Counted from the stretch's first letter, positions 2,969 through 49,896 are shown. The stretch is DNA of 54,801 nt from Candidatus Amesbacteria bacterium GW2011_GWA1_47_20 (GCA_001002405.1 LCOA01000002.1:1-54801); one strand, 5' to 3'. The notes: generated by a model from the letters alone, not told the origin. Program-made: numbers and translations.

Positions 2969-3735
2969 AATGATCTTTGCCAATATTTAATGTAAGCCAT
3001 GGCGAGAGTGAGGCCGGAAAAGAGGGCGAAGACAAAGCCGGGGTAGCCATCTACCAGCCCCAAGTGACGGAAGTAGATTTTCAAAAAAGTGAGCAGAGGG
3101 AGCAAAATAAGATAATTAAGAGCATTGAGCAAACTAAGCTTTTCGTGGCGGGCTTGCATTTGGGAGGCAGCGAAAGACGAGTAGCGGTTAACGCCGTCTA
3201 AATACTTGGCGAAACTGGTGTCGCGGTAGTGCAGTAAATCGTGCTTAAGATGGCCGACCGGCCCGGTCACCTGCGCCTGCTCGTGCACGTCGGCTGCGGG
3301 AAGACGGCCCATTCCTTTGCGGTACAGGCGGAGGGTAGGATCGGGGTATTGGCCGCCTTTGGTTAAAAAACGAGTAAGAAACCAGTTTTTTCGATTCACC
3401 CAGTAGCCATTGAGTGCTGGGCGCTGAACGCTGAGCGTTGAGCGAATTTCGCTCGAGAGTTCGGGAGACACGACTTCGTCGGCGTCCAACTGAAGTATCC
3501 AGTCCCCGTGGGCCGCGTCGATAGCTATATTTTTGTTGATATGAAAGTTAGCCGGGTTTTCGCGAATAATAACCTTGGCATTATGTTTTTTGGCAATTTG
3601 CACCGTCTGATCCGAAGACTTGCCATCCACAACTACAATTTCGTCAGCGATATCTTTTACCGCCTCTAGACACCGGCCAATATTGTCCTCCTCATTATGG
3701 GTGGCCAGGACGACAGAAAGTTTAGGGGTTTTCAT
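2965..3735 (-). CDS. GT2-family glycosyltransferase (WaaE/KdtX-like subtype)
   Basis: LSVVLATHNEEDNI, VVVDGKSSDQT and QLDADE motifs. Paralogous to 27849-28598 and 29437-30276. ATGA overlap at 3732-3735. Confidence 0.85.
   Translation of the reverse strand: MKTPKLSVVLATHNEEDNIGRCLEAVKDIADEIVVVDGKSSDQTVQIAKKHNAKVIIRENPANFHINKNIAIDAAHGDWILQLDADEVVSPELSSEIRSTLSVQRPALNGYWVNRKNWFLTRFLTKGGQYPDPTLRLYRKGMGRLPAADVHEQAQVTGPVGHLKHDLLHYRDTSFAKYLDGVNRYSSFAASQMQARHEKLSLLNALNYLILLPLLTFLKIYFRHLGLVDGYPGFVFALFSGLTLAMAYIKYWQRSL
3423..3443. repeat. Heptanucleotide tract (GCTGAAC GCTGAGC GTTGAGC) in a GT2 gene
   Basis: Read directly. Encodes STLSVQR. Confidence 0.75.
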
Positions 3736-5408
3736 ATGTTTTTAAATTTATTAATCCATCTATTACAAAATTGGTCTGTAGACATAATTTCCGGCTTATA
3801 ATCGCTGTGATAATGGAACCGCCGCCAGTATGATAAGTCTGACGATGAGCAAGTTTCATCATTATATATTTTCCAAAGTGTACCGGTATCCTTTTGATCC
3901 TGAATTACAAGCTTATTCCCGCTAGGGGGTTCACAATTAATTCCAAACTGCACTACCAATGTGCCGGTTGGTAGTTGCTGTGGACAAATTTGGGAAATAT
4001 GTATTCGGTCGTAATTGTACGGACCAGATAAACTTATCAGCCTAGGTTTGTCGCCTAAAGTGGACTGTGAGAAATACATAACTTGCTGTAATACTTGTAA
4101 GGGCTGCGCGGCAATTACCGTTACTTCTCCGGAGGTTTTGATCAAATAATTAGCCAGTATTCTTTCTCCCAGAAAACCGGTCTCGGCGGCAGTGACAGGA
4201 TATTGATAGAAGAAAAAGTGGAGGAAATTTAAACTTAGAATGAGATAGCCCACAATAACGACGGGCAATAATTTTTTGTGGCTGGTAAATTTAGTTATCC
4301 CGGCAGCGATTAACAAGAGTAATCCCGGTAAAAAGGGTGCTCCTCTGTACATATTTGCGGGCAGGGAGTTGTTGACTAGAGTTCCCACGGGTCCTAGCGT
4401 TATCAAAAGCGCGGCCAAACTAATCCCGGGCATACCCATACCTAATCCTAGAGCCGAAAAAAACAAATCTGGTAAATAAGCTGCGCCATGGAAGGTCAAC
4501 CTCTGATTTGAGGACGGATCGCCTGAAAACAATAAATAATCCGGAGACCAATAATTCCAATATTTTTGGAGAAGTAGACGTGTGAATTCTGCTGGCTTGT
4601 TGAGAAAAATAAAACTAAATGGGTTGGAGATAGATGTCCGGCGGGCCGTGTCAATCGTTGCCCCAATTTGAGACCAGGTGGAAAGCCTGATTTCTTGGCG
4701 ACGACGGGAAAAGGTGCTTCCGGGGATAGTAAAGGCGAAATATATATACCCTGCCACAAATAGTCCGAACACGAGCCAAAAAATTATGGCTACAGAAATT
4801 TTGAATTTCTTTCTGGTAAATCCAAGCCAGATGGGCAAAATAAGTCCCATGATAATAGTAAATGGTTTAGTACCGTAGTAAGCCAGAAAGGCCAAATCTA
4901 AAAAAATAGCCCCCAAAAATGCAGCCAGGGCAGTGTTTTTCCAGAAGATGTTAAGCGATAACGAAATCAACAACAAGGCTAGTGGTGCTTGAGTTAGAGA
5001 GCGAGAAAATATAATCGACCACGGTGAATACAAAAACAACGCGAGAAATACCAATGCCAATTTTTTGTTTGCGGTTAGACGGTAAACAAGGATGGTCCAT
5101 AATAAAATTGTTAGTAAGTTGATTATGACCATGGGCAGGCGGGCTATGTATACATTCACCGGCAATAATCTTTGAAAGGGTGATAAGAGCAAGGAGAGGA
5201 GCGTGTCATCACCAGTTTCTACTTGGTTTTTTATAAGTGAGATAGGAAATTTTTCTCCCAGGGTATCAGTACCAAAATAGGCGTAGGACCTGGCGATCAT
5301 GACGGCATCCATTTCGTCATGATTAAGTCCTGGAGGTACTTGGTCCAACCATATAAACCGGATTATTACGCCTGGCAGCAGAACTAAAAAGAGAAGAAAA
5401 TATTTCAT
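3732..5408 (-). CDS. Divergent PMT/ArnT-like GT-C membrane protein (AT-richer paralog)
   Basis: Polytopic, 558 aa. First loop PPGLNHDEMDAVMIARSYAYFGTDTLGEKFP aligns to the WDEAALGYNAYSLLLTGRDE loop of its neighbours, with GRDE replaced by GTDT. Confidence 0.55.
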   Translation of the reverse strand: MKYFLLFLVLLPGVIIRFIWLDQVPPGLNHDEMDAVMIARSYAYFGTDTLGEKFPISLIKNQVETGDDTLLSLLLSPFQRLLPVNVYIARLPMVIINLLTILLWTILVYRLTANKKLALVFLALFLYSPWSIIFSRSLTQAPLALLLISLSLNIFWKNTALAAFLGAIFLDLAFLAYYGTKPFTIIMGLILPIWLGFTRKKFKISVAIIFWLVFGLFVAGYIYFAFTIPGSTFSRRRQEIRLSTWSQIGATIDTARRTSISNPFSFIFLNKPAEFTRLLLQKYWNYWSPDYLLFSGDPSSNQRLTFHGAAYLPDLFFSALGLGMGMPGISLAALLITLGPVGTLVNNSLPANMYRGAPFLPGLLLLIAAGITKFTSHKKLLPVVIVGYLILSLNFLHFFFYQYPVTAAETGFLGERILANYLIKTSGEVTVIAAQPLQVLQQVMYFSQSTLGDKPRLISLSGPYNYDRIHISQICPQQLPTGTLVVQFGINCEPPSGNKLVIQDQKDTGTLWKIYNDETCSSSDLSYWRRFHYHSDYKPEIMSTDQFCNRWINKFKNI

Positions 5409-6977
5409 CTAGTTGCTGATTATTTTGAAAGCCGGGCTACTATTTGGAAAATTAATGGTTTTAACTATATTAACACCTACGTCGGGAATGTCTTCGGGAG
5501 CGGCTACGATGAGCGAGGAGTGAATGTCGCTGACTTTGGACCAGGGCGTATCAGCAAAATGGAATTTGGAGTAATCGCGAACAGTGGAGAAATTGTATTT
5601 GTCCCGGAAAGTGAGAGAGTGATGACCTTGGAACTGTTGGGGCGGGTATTTGGAATAAAAGAGGAAAAGAATGTAAGGCTGATCGTACTTGTCGGTAACT
5701 AAGATCTTTTCATACCTGTCCTGAACCGACCCCACGTAAGCTACCAACTCTTTGAAGCCGTACTCCCAGGCGTAAGGATAAGTTTGAGGATAGTGAACGT
5801 AATACTGGTGCAGATATCTAGTTACTTGCCATAAATACACAAATCCCAAGACACAAATTCCAAATAATTTCCAATGTTTTAAAGTTTCAAAAACACCAAC
5901 CGAAATAAGGATAGTTAAGGGAATAACCATGGCGTGAGCGCGCAGGGCGTGGGGGGTTTGAAAAGTGATGGCGGAAGCGAGAGGGGCTACTAATAACCAC
6001 AACCATACCAATTTGGTCTTTGGTCTTTGGTCTTTGGTCCTTAGTAGATAGGCCGCGCCGAGGGCTAGAAAGATAAAATCGGTGAAGTAGAGAAGGCCGG
6101 TTTCGGGAACGCGGTTGCGGGGAATGACGTCGCCGTTGACAAACAGGAAATTGCCGAAGAAATGGTCGGTGTAATTTTCTAGAAATTGAATGGTGTACAG
6201 AACAGGACGGTTGTGCAAAACACGGGATAAGGGCGTGCTCCACCCCGGATGCTGGCCGCGCAGCTCCTTGGCCCGATTGAGAGGACCCTCATCGGCGAGC
6301 AGGCCTACTCCGGAGAGACGGGAAGCGGCATTAGTAGTAACTAGGTTATAGATTAGAGGGATTAGGAGTAAGAAACCAATGACCGAAGCTGTAAAAATGC
6401 GTTTGGGGCGGTAGAAAAGAAATAGACCTAAACCCAGGAGAGGAACAGTGAGGCGAGCAGATTGATAAAAATACATAGACAGCGCAAAGCTCAAAACGCA
6501 AAGCTCAAAACGTTTCTTAAGGAAGAGCCAGACGCCGATAAGCATGAGAGTGGTGGCGACGTTGACCTCCCAGCCGCCGCGGGAGAAATGCAAGTGCCAG
6601 GGGCTGATGGCCAACAGCAGCGCCGCCAGTTGACCAGTTTGCCAGTTGATCAGTTCTTTGGTCAAAAGATATACAAAGAGGACGGCCAGGATGCCGAAGA
6701 GGGCGGAGGGGAGGCGGACGGCGAATTCGGTGAGACCGAATATTTTGATGAAGGGCATGAGCAAGTAGGCGTAACCCGCGGGTTTGAAATCGCCGAAAGA
6801 TTCCAGATTCACCGGCCAAGGATGACCGTGCTCATCCCGACCGGTCAGAAGTAACGAGTAAGCGTTGTAGCCCAGAGCGGCTTCGTCCGCGTTCAAGCCT
6901 GCCGGAAAATCGGCCAGCCGGTAAAGGCGCAAAAAGGCGGCTAAAATTAAGACGAAAATAAGAATTATTTTTTTCAT
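5409..6977 (-). CDS. GT39-like (PMT/ArnT-type, GT-C fold) membrane glycosyltransferase, paralog 1
   Basis: LNADEAALGYNAYSLLLTGRDEHGHPWPVNLESFGDFKPAGYAYL, then ISPWHLHFSRGGWEVN, about 11 TM segments and a C-terminal soluble domain. Confidence 0.8.
   Translation of the reverse strand: MKKIILIFVLILAAFLRLYRLADFPAGLNADEAALGYNAYSLLLTGRDEHGHPWPVNLESFGDFKPAGYAYLLMPFIKIFGLTEFAVRLPSALFGILAVLFVYLLTKELINWQTGQLAALLLAISPWHLHFSRGGWEVNVATTLMLIGVWLFLKKRFELCVLSFALSMYFYQSARLTVPLLGLGLFLFYRPKRIFTASVIGFLLLIPLIYNLVTTNAASRLSGVGLLADEGPLNRAKELRGQHPGWSTPLSRVLHNRPVLYTIQFLENYTDHFFGNFLFVNGDVIPRNRVPETGLLYFTDFIFLALGAAYLLRTKDQRPKTKLVWLWLLVAPLASAITFQTPHALRAHAMVIPLTILISVGVFETLKHWKLFGICVLGFVYLWQVTRYLHQYYVHYPQTYPYAWEYGFKELVAYVGSVQDRYEKILVTDKYDQPYILFLFYSKYPPQQFQGHHSLTFRDKYNFSTVRDYSKFHFADTPWSKVSDIHSSLIVAAPEDIPDVGVNIVKTINFPNSSPAFKIISN
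6013..6040. repeat. Heptanucleotide tandem repeat (TTGGTCT x3 plus TTGGTCC) in GT39-like paralog 1
   Basis: Read directly. Encodes TKDQRPKTK. Confidence 0.9.
6483..6512. repeat. Perfect 14-nt tandem duplication (CGCAAAGCTCAAAA x2) in GT39-like paralog 1
   Basis: Read directly. Encodes FELCVLSFAL. Confidence 0.9.
6626..6657. repeat. Octanucleotide tract (CCAGTTGA CCAGTTTG CCAGTTGA TCAGTTCT) in paralog 1
   Basis: Encodes INWQTGQL. A 27-nt core (6621-6647) is identical to 12628-12654. Confidence 0.85.
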
Positions 6978-8533
6978 GGCAGTCCCACCACCCGCAGGCC
7001 CGGTGCGCCATTGGGATATTTAATATCCCCGAGCATAATCAGATTGGGAATGGTGGCTAAATCAGACTCCGGCAGTTCATAGCGGTCACCGATCAAAATA
7101 GTGGAATTGAGGAGTCGGTCGTCGGGCAGAAAGAGTGGACGGAAAATAAATTTGCCGAAGCGATCTACGTGGCCCACGTCGCCGACGGGGCTAACAGCTA
7201 ACTGGCTAAATGGTTGATAATCCCGGGGGTCGATCTGCAAGTAAAAGAGAGTAAAAATATACGGCTGGCCAAGTTTGTCGGAAAAGATGACTTGCCGGTA
7301 TTGGTCTAGATGCTGTTTGACGATAGCCAGAACCGGTTTGTAAGGATATACCATGTCCACGGCGGTGAAATTGGAGGAATGAATATAGAATAAATCAAGA
7401 TAATAGACTAAGAAAAACAAGAGTATGAGAGTATAAGAGTATAAGAGGAGACGCCGACGAGACAATTGGGCTAGACCCATACCAGAAACAATGACTAGCG
7501 GCACGAGAAGCGGCAAGGAGCGGACGCCGGAAACGAGGTCGCGCGAAAGGGCGGAGGGCAAAGGAGCCAGGAGCAGCCAAGCAATGAGAAGTTTAGTTAG
7601 TGGGTTATTAGTTCGGAGTAAGACGACGAGTCCGATAAGAATTGTAAGGATTTCCGGGAGGTGGAAGTAGCCATAGTATGCAATTGAGTGGCGCAAATTC
7701 TGCCAGTCTCCGGCGAAGAATAAGAAATATGGGGAGAGGTGGTTTAGATATCTTTGAAGTACGCCCCTGCCCTGGTCTATTAGTTCTAAGTGAAAAAGAG
7801 AAAAGAGAAAAGGGTTACCATTGTCCTGACGTAGGATTTCAGCGACCGTGTCCGGACGGCGGGTGTAACTGAAGACGCTGAAGACTTTGAGCCGACCTGA
7901 TTGGGAAGCGAAACCCACCAGAATTGGAAGTATGAGTAAGAGTAAGAGGAAGAGGGGTTTGACCAGTAATTTTATGGCTGGGCGATAAATTAGCAAGAGA
8001 GTTAACATGAGAAGCGGAGTGAACATCTTGGCCCCCTGATAAGTCAGGAGCGTCAGGCCAAAGAAAAGGGCGGATGTCAGATAGCGGCGGCGGATGAACA
8101 ACAGTGTTGCCAAGGTCGTAAGGGTGAGTGCCACATTGGCCTCCCAGGCACCGCGGGAAAAATACAGCGACCAGGGGTTGATGGCCAGCAACCCGGCGGC
8201 AAAGACATTTCTGGTGAGCAAGTAAACTACGATAATAAGAAGTACCCCAAAAATGGCCGAGGGAAGACGAGTGGCGAATTCAGTTAAACCCAAAACGGAT
8301 ATTGAGGGGACAGCCAGGTAAGAATATAGAGCCGGCTTGTAATCGCCGAAGGATTTGAGAATCAAGGGCATGACTTGGGCGTATTCATCCCGGCCGGTCA
8401 AAAACAGCGAATAGGCGTTGTAGCCTAGAGCGGCCTCGTCCCAGGTAAAACCCAATGGCCGGGAGTCTAAGTGAAAAAGTCTTAGTCCAAGGCCAAGTAA
8501 AAGTATGAACGCAAGAATAATTCTATTTTTCAT
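6974..8533 (-). CDS. GT39-like GT-C membrane glycosyltransferase, paralog 2
   Basis: GFTWDEAALGYNAYSLFLTGRDEYAQVMPLILKSFGDYKPALYSYL. Start ATG 8533 (MKNRIILAF...) is preferred by analogy to the paralog N-termini; the track start is 8557. Confidence 0.8.
   Translation of the reverse strand: MKNRIILAFILLLGLGLRLFHLDSRPLGFTWDEAALGYNAYSLFLTGRDEYAQVMPLILKSFGDYKPALYSYLAVPSISVLGLTEFATRLPSAIFGVLLIIVVYLLTRNVFAAGLLAINPWSLYFSRGAWEANVALTLTTLATLLFIRRRYLTSALFFGLTLLTYQGAKMFTPLLMLTLLLIYRPAIKLLVKPLFLLLLLILPILVGFASQSGRLKVFSVFSYTRRPDTVAEILRQDNGNPFLFSLFHLELIDQGRGVLQRYLNHLSPYFLFFAGDWQNLRHSIAYYGYFHLPEILTILIGLVVLLRTNNPLTKLLIAWLLLAPLPSALSRDLVSGVRSLPLLVPLVIVSGMGLAQLSRRRLLLYSYTLILLFFLVYYLDLFYIHSSNFTAVDMVYPYKPVLAIVKQHLDQYRQVIFSDKLGQPYIFTLFYLQIDPRDYQPFSQLAVSPVGDVGHVDRFGKFIFRPLFLPDDRLLNSTILIGDRYELPESDLATIPNLIMLGDIKYPNGAPGLRVVGLP
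7421..7447. repeat. Octanucleotide tract (GAGTATGA GAGTATAA GAGTATAA GAG) in paralog 2
   Basis: Read directly. Encodes LLLYSYTLIL. Confidence 0.8.
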
Positions 8534-10001
8534 AAACAATAAAGGCCGGTTGACCATCGAGGAAATTAAATGTGGTTATCTCCCGGCCAGAAATTTTACT
8601 CTCGGGGCTGGTGACAACGAGCGTGTTTGGTTTAAACGTCAGTTGGCCAATTTCCCAATCGTTGACAAAAGTAAATTTATCCAGAGCGTTGACCCAGTAC
8701 CAGTTGGCGTGGTAATCCCATTGCTTGCGGAGTTGAAAATCGGCCGGGTTCCAGGGCCAGAAATAGGCCACAAATTCATGCGGTTCGCCATATTTTTTGG
8801 TAAAGATAATCTGATCGTAATCGGAATAGCGCTGTTTGATAAATTGAACTACTTTAGAGTAACCATATTGCCAAGACTGCGAATAGTTATTACGATAACT
8901 ATTCGCGGATACTAGATAGTAGATAGTAGATATTAGGAGACCCACGAAGAAAAGAGCCTTAACATTACGGCCGAAGCGGTCCAGACCATGAGCGATTAAG
9001 AGCATAGACAGAGGCAGCATAGGAATGGCCCGAAGGACATGAGGCGCATCTCGCGTCAAACTACCGGCAATCGGCGCAAGTAACAGCCATGCCCAGGAAA
9101 TTTTATTCAGCTTTAATAACCCTAGGTAAAAAAAGGGCAAACTGACCAAATAAAGCAGGCCGAAGTTTTGGATGCTGAACTGATAATGATCGCCGCCTTT
9201 GAGGAAGAGAAAGTTGGGAGAGAAGTAACTTAAGTAATTTTGACCGAAACGGTAGAGAAAATAAGTGGCCTTGTTGTACAGCAGCCGGCCCCCAGGACGG
9301 GATTGCAGTTGATCGATTTGGGCAATGGCACCGGAATCCAGGATGGTCAACCAGCTTAGTCTAGCTTGACCGGAAGGAGAGAGAAGTTGGATAACCATGG
9401 GGATAAATAAGAAAGCTGTTAGCAGATAGCTAATAGTCGTTAGCTTGGGACGATGGAGAAAAAGATAGGCGAGTAAAAACAACGGGCTGAAGACGCGGGC
9501 GGAATTGTAAGCCCAGACGGAAAGCCCCAGAAATAAGATGCCCAAATTTGTCTTGCGGACCAGCAAACAGCAAATGCCTATGGCAATAAATAATGCACCC
9601 ACATTGGCTTCCAGAGCAATACGGGATATCCACCAGGTCCAAGGGGAAATGGCGACCAAGACGGCTGAAGTGAGGCCAACGAAGGGAGAAGCCAGCCGCC
9701 AGCCCAAAAGATAGGTTATGATGATGAGTAACGTGCCGAAGACGATTGACGGCAGACGAACGAAAAAGGGAGAAATAGTGGCCAGGTAAACGTAGATGGG
9801 TAATTTGTAGTCTCCAAAGCTTCTGAAAATTGTGGGCAAGATCGTCCCCCACTCGTCCCGACCGGTCTGAAGAAGCGAATACGCGTTGTAACCCAAAGAA
9901 ACTTCGTCCCAATTGAGGCTGGGAGGAAGGAAGTTGCTGGCTACCAGCCGCAGAATCAGGCCGGCCGCCGCAATAAGTAAAAGCCACTTAACGTGAGACA
10001 T
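8523..10001 (-). CDS. GT39-like GT-C membrane glycosyltransferase, paralog 3
   Basis: SLNWDEVSLGYNAYSLLQTGRDEWGTILPTIFRSFGDYKLPIYVYL. ATG 10001. 46-nt overlap with the upstream gene end. Confidence 0.8.
   Translation of the reverse strand: MSHVKWLLLIAAAGLILRLVASNFLPPSLNWDEVSLGYNAYSLLQTGRDEWGTILPTIFRSFGDYKLPIYVYLATISPFFVRLPSIVFGTLLIIITYLLGWRLASPFVGLTSAVLVAISPWTWWISRIALEANVGALFIAIGICCLLVRKTNLGILFLGLSVWAYNSARVFSPLFLLAYLFLHRPKLTTISYLLTAFLFIPMVIQLLSPSGQARLSWLTILDSGAIAQIDQLQSRPGGRLLYNKATYFLYRFGQNYLSYFSPNFLFLKGGDHYQFSIQNFGLLYLVSLPFFYLGLLKLNKISWAWLLLAPIAGSLTRDAPHVLRAIPMLPLSMLLIAHGLDRFGRNVKALFFVGLLISTIYYLVSANSYRNNYSQSWQYGYSKVVQFIKQRYSDYDQIIFTKKYGEPHEFVAYFWPWNPADFQLRKQWDYHANWYWVNALDKFTFVNDWEIGQLTFKPNTLVVTSPESKISGREITTFNFLDGQPAFIVYEK
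8913..8936. repeat. Heptanucleotide tract (TAGATAG TAGATAG TAGATAT TAG) in paralog 3
   Basis: Read directly. Encodes LISTIYYLV. Confidence 0.85.
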
Positions 10002-12993: not shown

Positions 12994-12998
12994 GCAGC

Positions 12999-13031
12999 TT
13001 GATTATACGGGGGTGGCCAGCGTAATATCAA
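12999..13031. promoter_or_regulatory. Compact bidirectional promoter, each -35 overlapping the other strand's -10
   Basis: Plus strand: TTGATT (12999-13004), N18, TAATAT (13023-13028), N6, ATG 13035. Minus strand: TTGATA (13031-13026), N18, TATAAT (13007-13002), N8, ATG 12993. No SD on either side. Confidence 0.5.
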
Positions 13032-13034
13032 TTG

Positions 13035-14255
13035 ATGTGGCCGGGGATTGTAGCGGCGGGAGTGCTGGTAGTTAAGTTAGGATTGATGTTGGGGAAACCA
13101 TTGGGAGTAAGCGTGGCAATGGCTGAGACTTTTGGAAATTTGGGGTGGGGTGAGATGCAAATCAGAGTGTGGGGGTGGCTGGTGCAGGTGGTGATTGTGA
13201 TATTACTGGCCAAAAAAACTAGATCCGGATGGGTGGCGTTAATCGCCGCGGCTAATCCTTGGCTGAACACTATTTCTATGTGGCACGTATGGGAAACGAC
13301 AGCGCTGGCCGGCGCAGTCGGAGTGTGGGCGGCTAAGCACACGTGGCAAAAAGCGATAGGTGCAGTGGTTGTCGTATTGGCCTTGGCGGCCACTTGGACA
13401 AATTTAAGCAAAATTTCATCCGACAATTTAGCGGCCAAATTAAATTGGAATTTTTTGGGTCAGCAGGTAGACGAAATCCAGAAAATCAATTTCCAAGCCA
13501 CTCAAAAAAACTATATGCTTCCGGCAATTGTGCGCAAGATCTTATATAACAAGCCAGGATTGGCCTTAAATACGATTGTTCAAAGAAGCGTAGCGCTGAT
13601 GGATTTTGAGCAATGGACAGCACCACAGGCGGCCTGGACAGCGACCGGATTAAGCGGCCTACCGCCCAAAGGGTTGCTGCCCTTAATTTACTATTGGGAT
13701 ATCCCCTTGTTGATTTTTACGATCGTAATTTTTGACAAGAAGAGGGTGAAGTGGTGGCTAGTCGGTGGGTGGCTGGGGGGCATTTTTTTGGACAAGAAGT
13801 TTTTTACAGTTGGAGGAGTGTTGTTTATCCCGGCAATTGTGGTGCTGGTAGCCGAAGCCGTGAAACGTTTGGATAAGCGTTTGGTATTGGTACTATATCT
13901 AGCGGGCACAGGGTTTTTCTTTAAAGAAATGTTCTTCAATCAATTGAAGTGGCAATATTCGGACGTATATCTGTACCGACAGACGGCCATGTGGTTAAAA
14001 AACAACTTAGCGGCTGACGCGCGGGCGGCAGTGACAAACAAATTTGGGCCGATGGACGTGATGCTGAAATTTTACAAAGTGCTGCCGAATTCCAATATCG
14101 AAGTGGGTGAATTTACTCCCAGCCCCGGAAAAGTCTATATTGGATTGCCCAAAGAAATGCGGGGTATTCCGGAAGACAAAATCGTCACAAGAATTGAAGC
14201 GGATGACGAGCTGGTTTATGGATACGGAAAGGGCTTATGGATCGCAAAGTACTAA
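13035..14255 (+). CDS. N-terminally truncated GT39-like paralog lacking the catalytic first loop
   Basis: Aligns to the paralogs from the AANPW..W(E) region onward (ALIAAANPWLNTISMWHVWETTALAGAVGVW vs ALLLAISPWHLHFSRGGWEVNVATTLMLIGVW; LYNKPGLALNTIV vs LHNRPVLYTIQFL). It has no WDE...GRDE...SFGDYKP segment. ATG 13035 lies 6 nt after a TAATAT box. Confidence 0.6.
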   Translation: MWPGIVAAGVLVVKLGLMLGKPLGVSVAMAETFGNLGWGEMQIRVWGWLVQVVIVILLAKKTRSGWVALIAAANPWLNTISMWHVWETTALAGAVGVWAAKHTWQKAIGAVVVVLALAATWTNLSKISSDNLAAKLNWNFLGQQVDEIQKINFQATQKNYMLPAIVRKILYNKPGLALNTIVQRSVALMDFEQWTAPQAAWTATGLSGLPPKGLLPLIYYWDIPLLIFTIVIFDKKRVKWWLVGGWLGGIFLDKKFFTVGGVLFIPAIVVLVAEAVKRLDKRLVLVLYLAGTGFFFKEMFFNQLKWQYSDVYLYRQTAMWLKNNLAADARAAVTNKFGPMDVMLKFYKVLPNSNIEVGEFTPSPGKVYIGLPKEMRGIPEDKIVTRIEADDELVYGYGKGLWIAKY

Positions 14256-15628
14256 TCATTACTATTTTGGTAGTGGGAGCAGCGCTGCGGCTGGCTTGGC
14301 TGGATAAATCACCGGGGTCGGTAAATTGGGACGAGGCGGCCTTGGGCTACAACGCGTATTCTTTGTGGAAAACGGGGGCGGACGAATACGGAACAAAATG
14401 GCCGCTGGCTTTGCGATCGTTTGATGACTACAAACCCCCGCTGTATGCCTATTTAACGGCACCTGTCGTAGGAATATTTGGACTCAACGAAATAACCACC
14501 CGGCTGATATCTGCCCTGGCCGGGGTAGCCAGTGTTGGATTAGTGTATGTGATAGCCAAAAAACTGGTGGGGGAAAAAGAGGGATTGGTAGCGGCAGGGT
14601 TAATGGCAATTGAGCCCTGGGCGATTTTTTACTCCCGGGGGGCATGGGAAGCAAACTTGTCTCTGGCCGTATTTTTGACCAGCGTGTGGCTGATATTGAC
14701 CCGGCGAAATCTGGCCGGAATGATAATAGCCGGGATAAATGTTTTTTCTTATCATTCAGCCAAAATTTATTTGTGGCCGCTTTTAGTTTGGGGCCGGAAA
14801 AAGATGGGGGTGGTAATAGCAGTGGCGTTATTCACCATTGCCATGAGCAGTGGAGGATGGGCCAGGTGGACGTCCGCCGGAGGGAACTGGTGGGAGGCGG
14901 GCCAGAAATATTTCTCGTATTTTTCCCCGGCTAATCTGTTTGTGCGGGGTACGCCAGAACTTAACCAGCGGGTGGACGGGTTTGGCCTATATTATGGATG
15001 GGAGATATTTGCCTGGGCTATCGGGCTAGTGTGGCTGGTTAGGAATTGGCGGGAGAATAAAATTTTGGCTATGTGGCTAATCCTGGCTCCCCTACCGGCA
15101 ATCATTACCAGGAGCTGGTTTAACCCGGTGCGGGTGCTGCCATTGTGGGTTGCTCATACCATACTAGTTGCCATCGGCCTGCGGCGACTGACTGGCTGGC
15201 TGAAGATAATTATTGTCCCCTGGGCCGTAATTAACCTGGCGTGGTTTGGGTTGGCAGTCTTGTGGCAAATGCCGTACAGCCGTTACGGCGACTGGCAATG
15301 GGGGTTTAAAGAAGTGGTGCAGATTATTTCACCGGTATTGGACAAATATGATCAGGTGGTGTGGGAAACCGGACAGGCTCAACCATACATCTTCGCTTTG
15401 TTCTACCTGAAATATCCGCCGGAAGAATATCAGAAGGCACCGCGCCAGGGTTATGACTTCGGTAAATTTGTATTCCGGAAAATTTATTGGCCGGACGATA
15501 GAAATTTGAAAAATACTTTGTTTATTGGAGGAGTGTATAGCTTGCCGGAAGAGGGGGCTATCGGGAGAACCTGGGATCCGCAAGGATACGAATCAGCCCG
15601 TATACAAGCAACCCCCACACAACCATAA
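14237..15628 (+). CDS. GT39-like GT-C membrane glycosyltransferase, paralog 5
   Basis: SVNWDEAALGYNAYSLWKTGADEYGTKWPLALRSFDDYKPPLYAYL. 19-nt overlap with the preceding truncated paralog. Confidence 0.8.
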   Translation: MDRKVLIITILVVGAALRLAWLDKSPGSVNWDEAALGYNAYSLWKTGADEYGTKWPLALRSFDDYKPPLYAYLTAPVVGIFGLNEITTRLISALAGVASVGLVYVIAKKLVGEKEGLVAAGLMAIEPWAIFYSRGAWEANLSLAVFLTSVWLILTRRNLAGMIIAGINVFSYHSAKIYLWPLLVWGRKKMGVVIAVALFTIAMSSGGWARWTSAGGNWWEAGQKYFSYFSPANLFVRGTPELNQRVDGFGLYYGWEIFAWAIGLVWLVRNWRENKILAMWLILAPLPAIITRSWFNPVRVLPLWVAHTILVAIGLRRLTGWLKIIIVPWAVINLAWFGLAVLWQMPYSRYGDWQWGFKEVVQIISPVLDKYDQVVWETGQAQPYIFALFYLKYPPEEYQKAPRQGYDFGKFVFRKIYWPDDRNLKNTLFIGGVYSLPEEGAIGRTWDPQGYESARIQATPTQP

Positions 15629-16085
15629 ACAGAGGATCGCGAGTGAGGGGGGCGAGATTGAGAGACAAGCCGGAAGTACGATAGTAAGCCCGAAAGCCAT
15701 TTTCAATTTTGACGGATGGCGAGGAGGATGTGGTGGTTAGAGTCAGGGGTTGATTGACGGAGTCGGAAATGGGAGCAAACTGCAGACGGATATCGGAAGG
15801 GTCGCCGATGTTACGACCGGAAAAATTTACTTGGCGCAAGACCTGGCCGGTTGCGGTGCTGATGGTAAATACAAAACCGGACGTATCGGATAAGTCCGGA
15901 TTCTTCATACGCAGGAGAATAATGTTTAAGCCGGAGTGAGTGGGAGTAAAAGTAAATGGCCGGGTTTCAGCCAGCGGCAAATAAGCACTGCCGGGAACTT
16001 CTGTGTCCAGCCGGTTGCGGCTGGCAAGCGAAGCCAGCAATGAACTTACGAGGACGATGAACGGTCCGAGAAGAATAAGGCGCAT
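15558..16085 (-). CDS. Hypothetical membrane-anchored protein with Ser/Thr-rich beta-type ectodomain
   Basis: 175-aa ORF with N- and C-terminal hydrophobic segments. I recognise no family. Its 3' end overlaps the convergent gene by 71 nt. Confidence 0.4.
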   Translation of the reverse strand: MRLILLGPFIVLVSSLLASLASRNRLDTEVPGSAYLPLAETRPFTFTPTHSGLNIILLRMKNPDLSDTSGFVFTISTATGQVLRQVNFSGRNIGDPSDIRLQFAPISDSVNQPLTLTTTSSSPSVKIENGFRAYYRTSGLSLNLAPLTRDPLFMVVWGLLVYGLIRILADPRFSR

Positions 16086-17212
16086 AGGCTAATCCACAGG
16101 CTGACTCCTACTAGAACGGAGTGGAACAGGCTTTGCAAAAGAGGATTGACGAAAGGCGGTAGAAAAAGAATTTGAGGATTAAGGGGACTAATTAGTCCCC
16201 AGGTGAGAAATTTGTCGGGAAAAAGAAGAATGGTACCCATGGCGGAGGTAAAAAAAACCGCCAGAGATAACCATTCAAAGCGCAAGATAATAAACGGCAG
16301 GGACCACAGCAGCCATTGGGGGTGGAAATGGGACAATACTACCGGCAGTAGAGATGCGGCCAGAAAATAACTGGGTAAGCGGTGAATTTGGCCGCGGTGC
16401 AAAACACCCGCAACCAGAAACAGCATGGTCATAATCACCGGCACCAAATATAAATTCTCGGCGTAGCCTAATGGCAGCGCCAACTGCAGCACCCTTTGGG
16501 TCAGACCGGAAGTCAACGTATCGGAGTAAAAGGCCGGGGTGGCGAGAAACGGGGCCACAAATAGCAGATACGGCGCAATGCCCGCGGCAAATATTAGGGC
16601 GGAGCGCTTGAGACTGGTGGTAGATAAGAGGGCCAGAAACGGCAAAAACAGCAAGGGGTAGGTTTTGAAGGCGGCTGCCAGTCCCAAAAGAAGAGCTGCT
16701 AAAAACGGTTTGGGCTTAGCTATTACCAGCGCCAGGACGGTAAGCATCACCGGAAGAATATCGATTTGGCCCATGAAGCCGACGGCGTAAATAGTAAGGG
16801 GATTGAAAAACCAGATCCAGGGAATTTCCTTGCGCGAAGAGATTTTGGACAGCGTCCAACCCGTGGCCAGCAGAGCTAGAATGAGAGGTGTTTTGATCAG
16901 AAACAGGTACCGGAAAATACCGGCTACATCCACGGCGTCGTTGCCCATAGCCAACCAGGAAGCAAAACCCGGACCGGCCAAAAAATTAATAACGGGGTAC
17001 AGCAAACCCAGAACAAAATAGGCCAAGGGCGGATAAACAAATGAGCCGGCAGGAATGGGGTGAGCAGCCGTATAGCTATAGATATTAAATACGCCTTGGG
17101 AGAGAAACCCCGCCAGAGAATAAATTATTTTGATATCCGGATGGAAGAAAAAGGGGGCGATGAAAAAATAAAAGACAGCCGCAACCAGAAGGGGGCGTTT
17201 AACGTTTCGCAT
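16046..17212 (-). CDS. Polytopic GT-C-like membrane protein (DUF2029/Gpi18-related type)
   Basis: Many TM segments, YPPLAYFVLGLL and AAAFKTYPLLFLPFL motifs. Paralog of 25625-26830. ATG 17212 (MRNVKRPLL) preferred over the track start 17248. Confidence 0.45.
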   Translation of the reverse strand: MRNVKRPLLVAAVFYFFIAPFFFHPDIKIIYSLAGFLSQGVFNIYSYTAAHPIPAGSFVYPPLAYFVLGLLYPVINFLAGPGFASWLAMGNDAVDVAGIFRYLFLIKTPLILALLATGWTLSKISSRKEIPWIWFFNPLTIYAVGFMGQIDILPVMLTVLALVIAKPKPFLAALLLGLAAAFKTYPLLFLPFLALLSTTSLKRSALIFAAGIAPYLLFVAPFLATPAFYSDTLTSGLTQRVLQLALPLGYAENLYLVPVIMTMLFLVAGVLHRGQIHRLPSYFLAASLLPVVLSHFHPQWLLWSLPFIILRFEWLSLAVFFTSAMGTILLFPDKFLTWGLISPLNPQILFLPPFVNPLLQSLFHSVLVGVSLWISLCALFFSDRSSSS

Positions 17213-18362
17213 ACCGCCATGATAACCAAATAAAGGAGGCCAGCGCAAGTAAAATGAGAAGTTGGATGTTGAGGGTTGAGGAGAGCCAGGTGACCAAGAT
17301 GGGCCAACGGGGGTACCACCAGTTGTGATATAAGTTGAGCCAGTGAAAAAGGGAGAGATAAATAAATGCCGGTAACAGGCGGCGGTCCCGGGCCAACCAG
17401 AAAACTAAAAAGACCAGAGCTGGCAACAGGTAGCGCTCGTGCATGCGGGTGAGGAAAAAGAAAGCGGACATGGTAATTAGAGCAGCGATGGGAAAAACAG
17501 AAAAGCGTTTACGGGTAAAAACGAAAAGCAGGAGGGCGGCAAAAAGCACATATCCCCAGAGGCGGTAATTGGCGTCGGGAATTTTGCCCAAACCCATGGT
17601 TAAGGCCCAGAAATTAAATGCGTGATCTACCACGTAATCCGAACCCGAACCGGTTTGGATGATGTGCCAGTACGTGGCCAGGGGCGGAGTGGCAAACGGT
17701 AAAAATGCCAGTAGAAACATAATCAACCCAACGGCCGCGGATTCGAGACTTTGAGCAATGCCGAAACGGCGGTAAAAAAATAGAACATACAAAGGAATAA
17801 AAATTATGGAAGACTGTTTAGTAAGCAGAGCCAGAGTAAAAGAAACGGCCGAAAGGAACGGGCGACGGGTGAGGAAAGCGGCTACCAGAAAAAATACCGG
17901 CACGGACTCGATTTGGCCCCAGGAGGCACTGTTGTAAAAAATAGCCGGATTAAAAAGAATCAGGGCGGCCAACCAGCGTTTTTTCGTAGCAGTATATACC
18001 AGCCAAGCAAGACCTATATCTGCGGTCATGGCCCAAATTTTGTGAAACGCCGGCTGGGTGTCTTGGTCTTGCAGCCACCAAATGATTTGCGAGGGGAAAA
18101 GGGGGTATTTAAGATTTAGGTTCCATGCCGTGCGAGATACAGTATCGAAAAGACCTTGGGACAGGGTGAAAAAAAACAAAGTAACCGGGGGATAAGTGGG
18201 AGTGAGAGTACCGTAGCGGGACATGAACTCCCGCTGATAGATCCCTGCCGGACCAAGAGAAAGAATGTCTCTACCCCAAGAAACATGGTTGTTGACATCA
18301 CCAGAGTAAATTTGGGTACTAAGGAATAATCTAAGAACCAGACCGAGGATAAAAAGTGTCAT
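17199..18362 (-). CDS. Polytopic GT-C-like membrane protein (Gpi18/ALG-like loop)
   Basis: SGDVNNHVSWGRDILSLGPAGIY...TYPPVTLFFF loop followed by many TM segments. ATG 18362 forms an ATGA overlap with the upstream stop; the track start 18458 adds a non-hydrophobic extension. Confidence 0.45.
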   Translation of the reverse strand: MTLFILGLVLRLFLSTQIYSGDVNNHVSWGRDILSLGPAGIYQREFMSRYGTLTPTYPPVTLFFFTLSQGLFDTVSRTAWNLNLKYPLFPSQIIWWLQDQDTQPAFHKIWAMTADIGLAWLVYTATKKRWLAALILFNPAIFYNSASWGQIESVPVFFLVAAFLTRRPFLSAVSFTLALLTKQSSIIFIPLYVLFFYRRFGIAQSLESAAVGLIMFLLAFLPFATPPLATYWHIIQTGSGSDYVVDHAFNFWALTMGLGKIPDANYRLWGYVLFAALLLFVFTRKRFSVFPIAALITMSAFFFLTRMHERYLLPALVFLVFWLARDRRLLPAFIYLSLFHWLNLYHNWWYPRWPILVTWLSSTLNIQLLILLALASFIWLSWRYAKR

Positions 18363-19960
18363 TTTCTGGCAACCAGATACAAAATAGGCTGGTTGTAGGC
18401 GTTGGTGCTGGTAAACAGGACTTGGATATTGTCGGGAGGAGTACGGCGCCAATCCCAATCGCCGGCCACATTGTCCCGCTGGGAAATAACATACAAACTG
18501 TTGGGAAGCAAAGATTCCATCCAGTTTGATTTATTGAAGTTGCCAAAGAAGTATTTACCGTCTAAAGAAAATCCGTCGTAATTGGGAACAATGTTGACCT
18601 GAGGCTGATCCAGGGTGAATTGGCGATGAAATTTGGCCGGTGAGTAACTCGTCCAAAACAGGAAGCGAATTAAAGACGGCTCATAAGTGTTGTTGATAAA
18701 GACGCGGGAGTAATTGGGGGCCAGACGAGCCAGCTCGGTCATAGCCTGCTGAAATCCCACATTCCACCACCGCCAGGAAGATTTGGCGTAATGGGCAACG
18801 TAGTAATGGGCCAGGTACACAAAATAAGAAATAAAGAATACAAGGAATAAGATATTAAGAACCCGAGGTAATTTGCGGGTAACTAATACTACGCCGGCAC
18901 CGGTAGCGACAGCTAAGGGTGGAAGCATTAAAAACAAGCGAGTGGCGTGGTAGCCCCCGTCGGAAGTAAGAGCGGCTGGGAGCGGGGCTAAAAACAACCA
19001 AGTCAACCACAACCATTGCTTACGGGAAGCCAGATACCACAGGCCGATTAGCACGAAAGGGAAAGAGATGGGTAAAAGCTCGCCGACGATCTGCATGCTC
19101 TGGCGGTAATCGGGGTCGCCGCGAATGAATAAAAAGTCAGTGGAAAACGGCCGGAGATAATTAGCTACGACAGCAGAAGCGTAAGTTTCGAGTTTGTTGT
19201 GCCATAAACGCCCGTCTTCGGCCTGGAGAAGGTTTAAGTTTTTGAAAATTTCCGGATTGGCAAAAATGCTTAATCCCCCGAAGCGGCCCCGGGCGGGACC
19301 AGAGATAATATTAAAAATTAAGGGAACAAGAAGTAAAGAAAAAAGAAGTAAGGAAATAAGTTTGGGGCGAACGCGGGTAAGAAAAATGAGTGTCACAAAC
19401 CATAAAGGAACAAAAAGGACGGCGGTGCTGTAGGTGTACATCGAAAGGGCAAAGGGCAAAGGACAAAGGGCAAAACGACGTTTGAGAAAGAGCAAAGTGC
19501 CAAGCATGACCAGGTCGAGCATGAAAACTACTTCGTAAGCGGCCCGCGAGTAGTAGATGTGCCAGGGAGTCACCGCCAAAACCAGAGAGCAGAAGAGCGA
19601 GAGAGTATAAGAGCGAGAGATATGATAAACGAGGAGAAATAAAATGAGCGACCCAAGAGTACCAAAAATAACTTCAGGCAAACGGACGCCCCAGACGGAA
19701 TTTCCCAGGGCGGCGATGGTAGGAACTGTGGCGTACATGAGAAGTGGGGCGCGCCATTCCGCCAGAGAATGAATGTAAGTAGGCAAGATCTGGCCATATA
19801 AGTCCCTTCCGGTTTGCAGAAGTGACCGGGCCTGGTATCCCACGTCAACCTCATCACCAAACAATTCCGGGGGGGCGATCTGCAGCAGCCCAACACGTAA
19901 ACCTAGGCTAAGTGCTAAAATGAGGCTTAGAATCCAACTCATGCTATCTGTCATTATCAT
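18359..19960 (-). CDS. GT39-like GT-C membrane glycosyltransferase, paralog 6 (operon head)
   Basis: PPELFGDEVDVGYQARSLLQTGRDLYGQILPTYIHSLAEWRAPLLMY plus VTPWHIYYSRAAYEV. Possible starts at 19960, 19954 or 19942 (MSWILSL...). Confidence 0.75.
   Translation of the reverse strand: MIMTDSMSWILSLILALSLGLRVGLLQIAPPELFGDEVDVGYQARSLLQTGRDLYGQILPTYIHSLAEWRAPLLMYATVPTIAALGNSVWGVRLPEVIFGTLGSLILFLLVYHISRSYTLSLFCSLVLAVTPWHIYYSRAAYEVVFMLDLVMLGTLLFLKRRFALCPLPFALSMYTYSTAVLFVPLWFVTLIFLTRVRPKLISLLLFSLLLVPLIFNIISGPARGRFGGLSIFANPEIFKNLNLLQAEDGRLWHNKLETYASAVVANYLRPFSTDFLFIRGDPDYRQSMQIVGELLPISFPFVLIGLWYLASRKQWLWLTWLFLAPLPAALTSDGGYHATRLFLMLPPLAVATGAGVVLVTRKLPRVLNILFLVFFISYFVYLAHYYVAHYAKSSWRWWNVGFQQAMTELARLAPNYSRVFINNTYEPSLIRFLFWTSYSPAKFHRQFTLDQPQVNIVPNYDGFSLDGKYFFGNFNKSNWMESLLPNSLYVISQRDNVAGDWDWRRTPPDNIQVLFTSTNAYNQPILYLVARK
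19444..19478. repeat. Heptanucleotide tract (AAAGGGC AAAGGGC AAAGGAC AAAGGGC AAAACGA) in paralog 6
   Basis: Encodes FALCPLPFAL. Same alignment position as the 14-nt duplication at 6483-6512. Confidence 0.85.
19928..19933 (+). promoter_or_regulatory. -10-like box for the GT2 gene at 19941
   Basis: TAGAAT, N7, ATG 19941. It lies inside the N-terminal codons of the divergent gene. Confidence 0.3.
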
Positions 19961-20822: not shown

Positions 20823-20845
20823 ATATTCCAAGTTTGGATCGATGG

Positions 20846-20870
20846 AATTCCCACCTTTCAGGTGGAAATT
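20846..20870. terminator. Weak hairpin between convergent genes (possible bidirectional terminator)
   Basis: AATT-c-CCACC / tttca / GGTGG-a-AATT: a 5-bp GC core plus a 4-bp AT extension with one mismatch. The right arm touches the stop codon at 20869-20871. Confidence 0.2.
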
Positions 20871-21420: not shown

Positions 21421-21421
21421 A

Positions 21422-49330: not shown

Positions 49331-49331
49331 A

Positions 49332-49895: not shown

Positions 49896-49896
49896 G

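Follow-up and report, generated by a model that had tools for sequence, protein, structure and literature searches.

Membrane glycosyltransferases of the GT-C superfamily share a general plan of 11 transmembrane (TM) helices with the N-terminus inside, and a DxD or DE motif just after TM1 is essential for their activity (PMC6801728). Several described systems build on this plan. The mycobacterial GT-C series, to which PimE belongs (PMC12041525), depends on polyprenyl-phosphate mannose supplied by Ppm1 (PMC3485146), and GT87-like enzymes together with DPMS are hallmarks of actinobacterial lipoglycan assembly (PMC3485146, PMC12041525). In three-component extracytoplasmic glycosylation, the C-terminal domain of the GT-C enzyme can bind the acceptor (PMC11127046). 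Here, we examine a stretch of 54,801 nucleotides from a groundwater bacterium, Candidatus Amesbacteria bacterium GW2011_GWA1_47_20 (GCA_001002405.1, LCOA01000002.1:1-54801), hereafter the window. Within it, positions 3732-19960 form the centre of an extensive island for glycan biosynthesis in Candidatus Amesbacteria (Microgenomates, candidate phyla radiation or CPR), with an ordered array of GT-C-like genes that includes paralogues of one subfamily. We favour the reading that these enzymes would assemble a conserved envelope glycoconjugate, step by step and outside the cell, from polyprenyl-phosphate sugars.

Bacteria of the CPR (Patescibacteria) account for a large fraction of bacterial diversity, are mostly uncultured and are thought to live attached to other cells. 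To our knowledge, little has been described of their surface composition. A genome of the Microgenomates group is estimated at about 1 Mb. More than half of this 55-kb region is given over to GT-C genes, and the order of the core array is conserved across lineages, which argues for a major, selected envelope structure.

The enzyme class and its logic are known, and NCBI already labels homologues ‘glycosyltransferase family 39 protein’. In the full-text literature on CPR and Microgenomates glycosyltransferases (a collection of 7.7 million texts) we could not find a description of the multi-paralogue array, of its C-terminal domain or of a maintained pseudo-enzyme, and these three elements appear to be undescribed. 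That literature does mention, only in passing, copies of GT87 and of Dol-P-mannosyltransferase in Saccharibacteria and Peribacteria.

A GT-C subfamily in seven copies

Genes lie nearly wall to wall across the window, with the minus strand dominant, and at many gene junctions the start and stop codons are directly adjacent or show a 4-nt overlap. The first-pass annotation, made from the DNA alone, had pointed to polytopic GT-C-like genes packed very densely at 3732-19960, and this run is real: it holds 12 genes, 11 of them GT-C-like and of several subfamilies, which together cover 97% of its bases. The same annotation had placed 10 of 13 genes in one family. We count six core copies in the run, with one distant member of the family (3732) and one degenerate member (13032); of the others, 9956 is of PTPS_related type, 16046 and 17199 are GT87-like, and 15558 is bitopic. 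The candidate for a thirteenth gene, an open reading frame (ORF) of 136 residues at 13028-13438 (-), was rejected, as it lies antisense within 13032-14255 and does not appear in independent gene predictions for this DNA. In the window as a whole, 21 GT-C-like ORFs (an earlier estimate was about 20) make up 55.5% of bases, and glycosylation-related genes of all classes sum to 81.6%. The GT-C-like set is one superfamily with several subfamilies. With hhalign profiles built from orthologue alignments and compared for a subset of the ORFs, 19 of the 21 are linked at a probability of at least 89%.

In an all-against-all BLASTP comparison, seven full-length paralogues stand out as a core family; they are 30-37% identical over their whole length (E 1e-21 to 1e-87 among the seven). 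This likeness, judged from the protein sequences, is homology and not chance. The reference copy, paralogue A (5409-6977 (-), 522 residues), is 100% identical at the protein level to a protein of Candidatus Amesbacteria bacterium GW2011_GWA2_47_11b and scores 39.2 bits with PMT_2 (gathering score 26.1) and 21.3 with PMT, below the cut-off of 22.7. Paralogue B (6974-8557 (-)) is 30-34% identical to the other core copies at full length and reaches a sub-gathering 20.5 bits with PMT_2. Paralogue C (8523-10001 (-)) has no Pfam match on its own sequence and is joined to the core copies by BLASTP (E 1e-45 to 1e-68). Paralogue D (11452-12993 (-)), 37% identical to paralogue A, has a PMT_2 score of 32.4 bits, and paralogue E (14237-15628 (+)), on the strand opposite to the rest of the array, one of 40.8 bits. 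Paralogue F (18359-19960 (-)) is the most divergent putative catalytic copy (E 1e-24 to 1e-63 against the core copies). Outside the main array, paralogue G (38081-39676 (-)) passes both cut-offs (PMT_2 30.0 bits, PMT 25.2 bits). It is one of the two further relatives that had been noticed near 38081; both are there, at 38081-40847, and the second (39570-40847) is degenerate. PMT_2 matches above the gathering score are thus found for 5409, 11452, 14237, 38081, 35185, 42171 and the C-terminal part of 43562, and PF02366 (PMT) matches at or above it for 35185, 38081 and the C-terminal part of 43562; the core copies other than these and 5409 have no PF02366 match.

The core copies are united by motifs in their external parts. 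Their alignment contains the first-loop signature, SFGD(F/Y)KP and PW..SRG.WE.N, represented in paralogue A by ADEAALGYNAYSLLLTGRDE, SFGDFKP and SPWHLHFSRGGWEVN. Seven copies had been credited with the first-loop signature. With a strict regular expression built from the original pattern, six match (A, B, C, D, E and G), whereas paralogue F, with GDEVDVGYQARS and SLAEWRA, is caught by the relaxed form only; in relatives, it forms its own orthogroup. A fourth motif, W-x-Y-G-(F/Y/W)-K-E, directly follows the last TM helix in all six orthogroups. Its tryptophan is conserved at 73-97% in five of these and replaced by a 95%-conserved methionine in orthogroup D, and its glycine is conserved at 60-100%. 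In paralogue A, the motif (AWEYGF) falls within residues 401-408 (window positions ~5760-5777), and the window copy of paralogue B departs from it (DMVYPY). The position of this W-x-Y-G-aromatic motif, just after the last TM helix, recalls the WWDYG of oligosaccharyltransferases (OSTs).

Fold, topology and the acidic motif

An AlphaFold model of the paralogue A protein, built on 58 homologues (pLDDT 89, pTM 0.89), was compared with the PDB by Foldseek. Every one of the 27 matches at E<=1e-3 is a GT-C protein. The best E values (~4e-8) go to STT3/PglB/AglB, with ALG9, ALG12 and Pmt4 also at E<=1e-3, and the best TM-score (0.59) to ArnT in complex with undecaprenyl phosphate (5f15); Pmt1-Pmt2 (6p25), EmbB (in EmbA-EmbB, 7bvf), AftA and PimE come further down the list. 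A sequence search of the PDB with a profile of nine paralogues gave one match, ArnT 5ezm (E 0.0055 over 80 residues), and the same search with the 58-sequence family profile or with the single protein 35185 gave none.

The modelled protein has 11 TM helices with the N-terminus inside. Under this layout, the short loops carry nine Lys/Arg residues inside against two outside, and the parts placed outside are the first loop (residues 25-83), a second, long loop spanning residues 215-299, and residues 400-522, which make up the C-terminal domain. The acidic pair D31-E32 stands at the start of the first helix within the first external loop. D31 is invariant (58/58 aligned homologues; 9/9 aligned window copies), and the DE pair is kept by 92-100% of the members of five orthogroups and by 78% of those of the sixth, F. 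More widely, an Asp follows TM1 in 20 of the 21 GT-C-like ORFs, the exception being 13032. The orientation can also be read from a natural fusion in the window, 43562: its GT2 domain must reach nucleotide sugars and must therefore be cytoplasmic, which sets the loop of its GT-C part, with DE(G)RD, on the outside.

By every criterion tested (fold, topology and DE motif), the copies are members of the GT-C superfamily, as far as a predicted structure can tell. The first-pass annotation was correct in this respect, as Pfam (PMT_2, PMT, GT87 and PTPS_related), hhalign and AlphaFold with Foldseek agree, and it was also correct to place the acidic motif in the first extracytoplasmic loop, where the model, the positive-inside count and the GT2-GT-C fusion all put it. 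The narrower label ‘PMT/ArnT-like’ does not hold as a statement of membership: PMT_4TMC and an ArnT NCBIfam match are missing, and the Pfam thresholds are reached by only some of the copies.

Where the paralogues differ

Identity is unevenly spread along the core proteins. TM1 and the first loop are the best conserved, with 46% identity between the seven paralogues and 48-61% within orthogroups. Between paralogues, identity falls to 37% in TM2-8, 28% in TM9-11, 26% in the long external loop EL4 and a mean of 24% in the C-terminal domain. EL4 and the C-terminal domain are nevertheless kept within orthogroups (36-51% and 36-50%, respectively). The paralogues thus have the first loop in common, and EL4 and the C-terminal domain are distinctive of each orthogroup; this pattern supports a shared chemistry with different acceptors or linkages, much as had been proposed from the window alone. 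On this comparison of sequences, the specificities of the paralogues are fixed and ancient. The earlier remark that the C-terminal domains differ strongly is right in that they are the most diverged region, but they are homologous and alignable, not unrelated.

When modelled alone, the C-terminal domain is predicted with good confidence (pLDDT 88). We considered it as a carbohydrate-binding module (CBM) or as a periplasmic domain of the ArnT/PglB type and rejected both (best fold E 0.16); with no structural relative, the domain gives no hint as to whether it binds glycan or peptide. A profile of the domain finds 2,447 cluster representatives among 1.84 billion. Among the 150 matches listed, it is always at the C-terminal end, in proteins of about 480-690 residues (mostly 510-590) or in shorter fragments, and this constant position marks it as a private domain of the core subfamily.

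An old, ordered array

Relatives were collected by a GTDB scan (one genome per species) with the family's own motifs, which gave 414 encoding stretches, of which the best 80 were used. All of these 80 come from Microgenomates-type genomes, and holders of the array include Amesbacteria, Woesebacteria, Blackburnbacteria, Daviesbacteria and Shapirobacteria. With a family hidden Markov model, the 53 related loci of at least 19 kb were seen to contain 2-6 core genes each, the median being five. With each ORF scored by its best-matching window protein, the gene order recurs as follows: F(18359)-17199-like-D(11452)-(PTPS 9956)-C(8523)-B(6974)-A(5409)-GT2(2965)-GT4(1979)-45706-like-GT2(36638-like). 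Each paralogue is its own orthogroup at a fixed place in this operon-like block. Paralogue A directly abuts the GT2 gene in most loci, and GT2 then GT4 directly follow paralogue A in nearly all relatives.

As judged from this synteny, the array is an ancient, vertically inherited and ordered cluster. It is not the recent local expansion that a single genome had suggested, since the same ordered array recurs in about 80 Microgenomates genomes (from the best 80 of the 414 stretches), across several lineages. A concern raised at the outset, that the copies might be duplicated or collapsed by assembly, is not borne out either. The paralogues are too diverged to be collapsed repeats, and the reference gene is found on 24 independently assembled contigs, made with various assemblers, with identical neighbours in 6/6 loci examined. 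Many records of metagenome-assembled genomes (TPA entries) with the array (among them L007, L008 and L012-L016), at up to 82% protein identity to the Amesbacteria genes, are titled ‘uncultured Gammaproteobacteria bacterium’; these titles are almost certainly placeholders or wrong taxonomy.

Within the window, a pair of AAA_14/DUF4143 ATPase genes at 620-1936 breaks the order: it separates the GT4 gene from the 45706-like/GT2 genes. In relatives, the latter adjoin the GT4 gene and the ATPase insert is absent.

Distant and degenerate copies

Three further genes belong to the core family at a distance. The copy at 3732-5408 (-) is about 25% identical to the others (hhalign 99.6% to the core family) and keeps HDE and SPW..SR. 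It occupies the junction between paralogue A and the GT2 gene in contigs of its own species only (0/80 relatives), and its local GC content drops to 42.8% from 48-50% in the surrounding sequence. These features suggest a recent, lineage-specific insertion, possibly acquired horizontally. Several relatives have a different insert, of ~1.3 kb, at the same junction.

The gene at 13032-14255 (+) encodes a degenerate paralogue (hhalign 97.6%, over core residues 237-512 only). Inspection of its N-terminal sequence shows that TM1 is kept and that the first loop is shortened and has neither DE nor SFGDYKP; alignment to the family is limited to the C-terminal two-thirds. The gene is nonetheless maintained, as its protein is 72-73% identical in the sister-species loci L007 and L008. 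A 13032-type gene is always paired with paralogue E (L007, L008, L010, L019, L045, L046 and L078), and more distant orthologues can retain DE (e.g. in L045). From its sequence and conserved pairing, 13032 is probably a maintained non-catalytic partner of paralogue E and a candidate pseudo-glycosyltransferase. The other degenerate copy, at 39570-40847 (-), is placed in the family by alignment (hhalign 97.7% to the core family); it keeps the D, has Y in place of E, and has lost the segment from TM2 to TM4 with SPW..SRG. At least these two copies, 13032 and 39570, have lost catalytic motifs and may act as non-catalytic partners.

Candidate donor synthases

The window also encodes enzymes suited to make lipid-linked sugar donors. 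The clearest is a predicted polyprenyl-phosphate mannose (hexose) synthase of DPMS type at 46739-47872 (-), which matches the Pyrococcus DPMS 5mlz over residues 1-329 (E 1.4e-45) and has Glycos_transf_2 and GtrA_DPMS_TM domains. Two ArnC/PgfS/PpgS-like GT2 genes at 36638-38084 (-), namely 36638-37432 and 37335-38084, are candidate polyprenyl-phosphate sugar synthases. Their products are 36% identical, and their best NCBIfam matches (ArnC, PgfS, PpgS and Dol-P-hexose transferase) are far under the equivalog cut-offs; a 36638-like GT2 is part of the conserved block. The fourth is the GT2-GT-C fusion of 716 residues at 43562-45712 (-), with Glycos_transf_2 at 114 bits and PMT_2 at 36.8 bits. Its residues 1-~235 form an ArnC/DPMS-like GT2 domain (ArnC E 7e-19, DPMS E 3e-12) and residues ~240-716 a PMT_2-type GT-C part (hhalign 96.9% to the core family; PMT 24.4 bits, above threshold). 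The fusion suggests that both domains would act on the same lipid-linked sugar. From these neighbouring synthases and the fusion, we infer that the GT-C enzymes would use polyprenyl-phosphate sugar donors.

For transfer across the membrane, there is a candidate Wzx-type (MOP) flippase at 31830-33263 (-) (Polysacc_synt_3, 165 bits). GtrA_DPMS_TM is found solely as the TM part of the DPMS homologue, and the window has no stand-alone GtrA. Cytoplasmic enzymes accompany the array as well. The GT4 gene at 1979-2983 (-) and the GT2 gene at 2965-3735 (-), identified by Pfam and by synteny in ~70 loci, encode what are, by their conserved position, cytoplasmic steps of the same block. The GT2 gene has two paralogues in the window, at 27849-28613 and 29437-30276; the three are 29-36% identical, each with a hydrophobic C-terminal tail.

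A stepwise pathway and its rivals

Our reading runs as follows. On the cytoplasmic face, the DPMS/ArnC-type GT2 enzymes (46739, 36638, 37335 and the N-terminal domain of 43562) would load sugars from nucleotide donors onto polyprenyl phosphate. Once the lipid-linked sugars had been flipped, some 20 GT-C enzymes would pass them to an acceptor on the outer face, and each conserved paralogue would perform one fixed step (one acceptor or one linkage) in a stepwise extracytoplasmic assembly. The case for one step per enzyme is that each has its own orthogroup, a fixed order, a donor-side loop shared with the others, and its own version of EL4 and of the C-terminal domain. The product would be a conserved envelope glycoconjugate, presumably a glycopolymer or lipoglycan and not a protein. 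Lipid A is an unlikely acceptor, as the window has no recognisable lipopolysaccharide (LPS) genes and Patescibacteria are generally described as single-membrane bacteria. The first-pass annotation had inferred a combinatorial system. That inference is not supported: orthogroups that are single-copy and keep one order resemble the steps of a pathway, or a complex, more than they do a diversifying repertoire of specificities. We put the probability of the whole reading at roughly 0.55. Its parts differ in strength: that GT-C enzymes act here with polyprenyl-phosphate sugars seems very probable, and for the stepwise making of a glycopolymer or lipoglycan our analysis gives even odds or slightly better.

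Several observations weigh against this reading. The best Foldseek E values are to OSTs, and W-x-Y-G stands where OSTs carry WWDYG. The GT2 encoded at 2965, next to paralogue A, has as its closest solved relatives GmaR (E 1e-14) and SunS, which are protein/peptide glycosyltransferases. These likenesses leave protein acceptors some probability. The isolated C-terminal domain has no significant fold match in the PDB. We recognised neither a priming phosphoglycosyl transferase nor an enzyme of Wzy/ligase type among the genes of the window. Orthogroups were assigned by best BLAST hits and not by a reconciled tree. Finally, the GT-C calls for 30281 and 45706 rest on weak scores, and that for 16046 is weak by Pfam alone.

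Some of these points favour the model put forward originally, in which PMT- or OST-like protein glycosyltransferases share one lipid-linked donor and each paralogue has its own protein acceptors or sequons. The DE motif and the PMT/PMT_2 matches speak for it, as do the top Foldseek E values to STT3/PglB/AglB with W-x-Y-G at the WWDYG position, the paralogue-specific external parts, the resemblance of the adjacent GT2 to GmaR and SunS, and a surface protein with a PT-repeat linker encoded at 53290-54753. Yet the window copies have neither PMT_4TMC nor an STT3 Pfam match, the isolated C-terminal domain is unlike the periplasmic domains of OSTs and ArnT, and a pathway is suggested by the one-to-one orthogroups, by their unvarying order and by the GT4, GT2 and GT87-like genes conserved along with them. 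GT87-like enzymes plus DPMS are typical of actinobacterial lipoglycan assembly (PMC3485146, PMC12041525). Taken together, we consider protein acceptors unlikely, with a real chance nonetheless. Rather lower is the chance that the copies chiefly form hetero-oligomeric complexes (cf. Pmt1-Pmt2 and EmbA-EmbB), with some subunits catalytic and others scaffolds and thus fewer reactions than genes. Such complexes would account for 13032, which is without DE and yet 72-73% conserved in sister species and always paired with 14237, and for the degenerate 39570 adjoining 38081; abutting or 4-nt-overlapping start and stop codons suggest co-translation, and the GT-C heterodimers 6p25 (Pmt1-Pmt2) and 7bvf (EmbA-EmbB) are among the fold matches. 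However, DE and the other motifs are retained in the seven core copies (92-100% in five orthogroups and 78% in the sixth), and most subunits therefore look catalytically competent.

Another reading keeps the GT-C fold but takes the proteins for oligosaccharide ligases or polymerases with lipid-PP-oligosaccharides as substrates, or for Agl23-type flippase-associated factors, and not for transferases of polyprenyl-phosphate monosaccharides. The NCBIfam matches to TIGR03663 (Agl23) and archaeal STT3 that hint at this are weak and far under their cut-offs. The Wzx-type flippase and the many cytoplasmic GT2/GT4 enzymes could indeed build a lipid-linked oligosaccharide, and the best fold E values are to OSTs; against this, four DPMS/ArnC-type synthases, one of them fused to a GT-C part, argue for monosaccharide-phosphate-lipid donors, and ArnT in its undecaprenyl-phosphate complex gives the highest TM-score. 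We regard such ligases or polymerases as quite improbable. The idea of an assembly artefact or a very recent tandem duplication comes from the tandem arrangement alone, with nothing else found in its favour. The paralogues are 22-37% identical at the protein level, the reference gene is on 24 contigs and orthologous arrays occur in about 80 other genomes (from the best 80 of the 414 stretches), which leaves this explanation with practically no weight.

With stepwise envelope assembly as the preferred reading, a wider claim can be put forward tentatively, and we hold it to be somewhat doubtful: that Microgenomates, a large part of the CPR, own an undescribed, lineage-defining envelope glycoconjugate. 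Nearly all of it would be built outside the cytoplasm by an operon-encoded series of at least six paralogous GT-C enzymes together with GT87-like and PTPS-like ones. Its biosynthesis would be about as complex as that of mycobacterial lipoarabinomannan (LAM)/arabinogalactan, although encoded by a very small genome, and if the claim is true, attachment to hosts may take place through this glycoconjugate. It would also involve conserved pseudo-enzyme partners (of the 13032 type) and an acceptor-binding C-terminal domain of a fold absent from the PDB. The interest of the locus lies in an old multi-paralogue operon and not in a burst of duplication in a single genome, and it points to the reconstitution of a pathway over a diversifying specificity code. 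In practical terms, the analysis gives a defined subfamily, which comprises ~2,400 clusters when grouped at 50% identity and is marked by its private C-terminal domain and by four conserved motifs on the outside. It also gives orthogroups open to individual testing and named candidates for the donor synthases.

Other genes of the window

The remaining GT-C-like genes fall into several groups. Two are of PTPS_related type: 9956-11455 (-), with MHD after TM1 (PF10131, 48.9 bits), which keeps its position between D and C in relatives, and 33530-35188 (-) (PF10131 E 2.2e-5; hhalign 100% to 9956 and 95% to 43562); the two are 37% identical. The GT87-like genes are 16046-17248 (-), whose GT87 match (E 2.3e-5, 24.7 bits) is just under the 25-bit cut-off (hhalign 100% to 17199 and 25625), 25625-26830 (-) (GT87 E 0.0032; hhalign 100% to 16046), and 17199-18458 (-). 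The last has no Pfam match and is assigned by hhalign (100% to 16046, 99% to 25625 and 89-95% to the core family) and by synteny, as a conserved array member between F and D. At 15558-16085 (-), a small bitopic membrane protein of 175 residues is not GT-C and has no family match; a 15558-like gene co-occurs with a 16046-like gene in L014, L020 and L024.

Closer to the core family is a PMT/PMT_2-type GT-C gene with FADEAIY at 35185-36663 (-), which passes both cut-offs (PMT_2 41.5 bits, PMT 33 bits; hhalign 97.3% to the core family). Two related PMT_2-type genes, 40793-42181 and 42171-43622, lie at 40793-43622 (-) (PMT_2 29.6 bits for 42171; hhalign 100% to each other, and 96.3% and 97.0%, respectively, to the core family). 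The protein encoded at 30281-31903 (-) is a probable GT-C-like membrane protein on weak evidence (GT87 E 0.0064; hhalign 79% to 42171). A small polytopic, weakly GT-C-like protein at 45706-46773 (+) matches NF046093, ‘cell surface glycopolymer formation protein’ (E 7.5e-12; PMT_2 E 0.0012), and a paralogue of its type belongs to the conserved block in relatives.

Nucleotide-sugar supply is represented by homologues of RmlD, RmlC, RmlB and RmlA for dTDP-rhamnose at 48494-51611 (-) (RmlD_sub_bind, dTDP_sugar_isom, GDP_Man_Dehyd/Epimerase and NTP_transferase). Nine further GT2/GT4 genes and one methyltransferase gene are scattered among the GT-C genes; at 19920-30276, such genes, mixed with GT-C genes and identified by Pfam, start at 19920, 24083, 24892, 26827, 27849 and 29437. 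Two GT2 genes look disrupted: one at 23300-24111, where a 139-residue N-terminal fragment (23692-24111) is followed by stops, and one at 28588-29446, with its N-terminal part (28904-29446) and C-terminal part (28588-28890) in different frames. They could be pseudogenes or sequencing frameshifts. A segment of low GC content (~41.6%) at 20869-23700 interrupts the island; it has a histidine-phosphatase-family gene inside, a 466-residue ORF with no family match at 21422-22822, and ~870 bp with no long ORF at 22823-23691. The island runs past the left edge of the window (locus L001, 15063-18820), with a 376-residue protein (weak Mannosyl_trans2), another GT2 and a 498-residue ORF. At 53290-54753, a surface-type protein combines a bacterial Ig domain with a run of Gly residues and a TPTPTPTPTP linker, and it ends in a C-terminal TM anchor with a basic tail; its called start is TTG, and no signal peptide is visible. 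From its composition, it is a plausible O-glycosylation substrate adjoining the island. Scans of the window for tRNA and Rfam families gave no match.

Comparison with known systems

The core copies can be set against three described families. With GT66 (STT3/PglB/AglB), they share the best Foldseek E values and the W-x-Y-G-aromatic motif after the last TM helix, and some homologue clusters carry a precomputed PF02516. On the other hand, they have 11 TM helices and a C-terminal domain of ~120 residues (122 in the model) against 13 TM helices and more than 250 residues, their motif is without the WWD core of WWDYG, and the window copies have no STT3 Pfam match at E<=0.01. Filing as GT66 was therefore rejected (WWDYG is lacking, the TM helices number 11, and the C-terminal domain is small and unrelated). 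The likeness to GT39 (yeast Pmt1/2/4 and actinobacterial Pmt) includes DE in the first external loop, the 11-TM N-in layout, PMT/PMT_2 matches and fold matches to Pmt4 and Pmt1-Pmt2, but the Foldseek matches to PMT proteins are weaker and partial (TM-score ~0.3 for most). No window protein has PMT_4TMC (Pfam, E<=0.01) or a MIR domain, and filing as GT39 was rejected, with PMT_4TMC missing and PF02366 mostly under threshold.

ArnT (GT83) gives the best TM-score (0.59, 5f15) and the sole PDB profile match (5ezm), has ArnC-like GT2 counterparts nearby, and shares the external Asp after TM1 and an external C-terminal domain. It differs in having 13 TM helices against the 11 predicted here, and the isolated C-terminal domain does not match that of ArnT. 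The 5409 protein has no ArnT family match in NCBIfam at E<=0.01 (weak Agl23 and archaeal STT3 matches only), and the window has ArnC-like GT2 genes only, with no ArnA, ArnB or ArnD domains. Filing as GT83 was thus rejected as well (no ArnT NCBIfam match, no arn operon context). As read from sequence, the core copies work like ArnT/PMT-type enzymes but form their own, Microgenomates-specific subfamily.

At the level of whole systems, the three-component systems (GtrA/GtrB/GtrC, CsbB/GtcA/YfhO and GT136 pentofuranose) have the same logic of a GT2 synthase, a flippase and an external GT-C, and candidates for all three component types are present in the window, with the Wzx-type protein as the putative flippase. 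In the known systems, however, a single GT-C serves each donor and adds to a pre-made polymer, whereas here ~21 GT-C-like enzymes face ~4 synthases. This ratio (~20 GT-C enzymes for about four synthases) suggests that the GT-C enzymes would build much of the structure themselves.

The closest analogue is the mycobacterial and corynebacterial lipomannan-LAM-arabinogalactan system (PimE, MptA-C, EmbA-C, AftA-D and Ppm1). The core copies do not belong to Emb, Aft or Mpt, and neither a CBM-like nor any other known fold matches their C-terminal domain. The setting is different too: a CPR bacterium with a very small genome, one island and a tandem array of one subfamily. The shared features lie in the overall design. 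Both have many GT-C enzymes per organism, which in the known system act serially outside the cell; in both, a DPM1-type GT2 makes, or here is predicted to make, polyprenyl-phosphate sugars, and GT87-type and cytoplasmic GT4 enzymes are involved; and the paralogue A model has EmbB, AftA and PimE among its fold matches.

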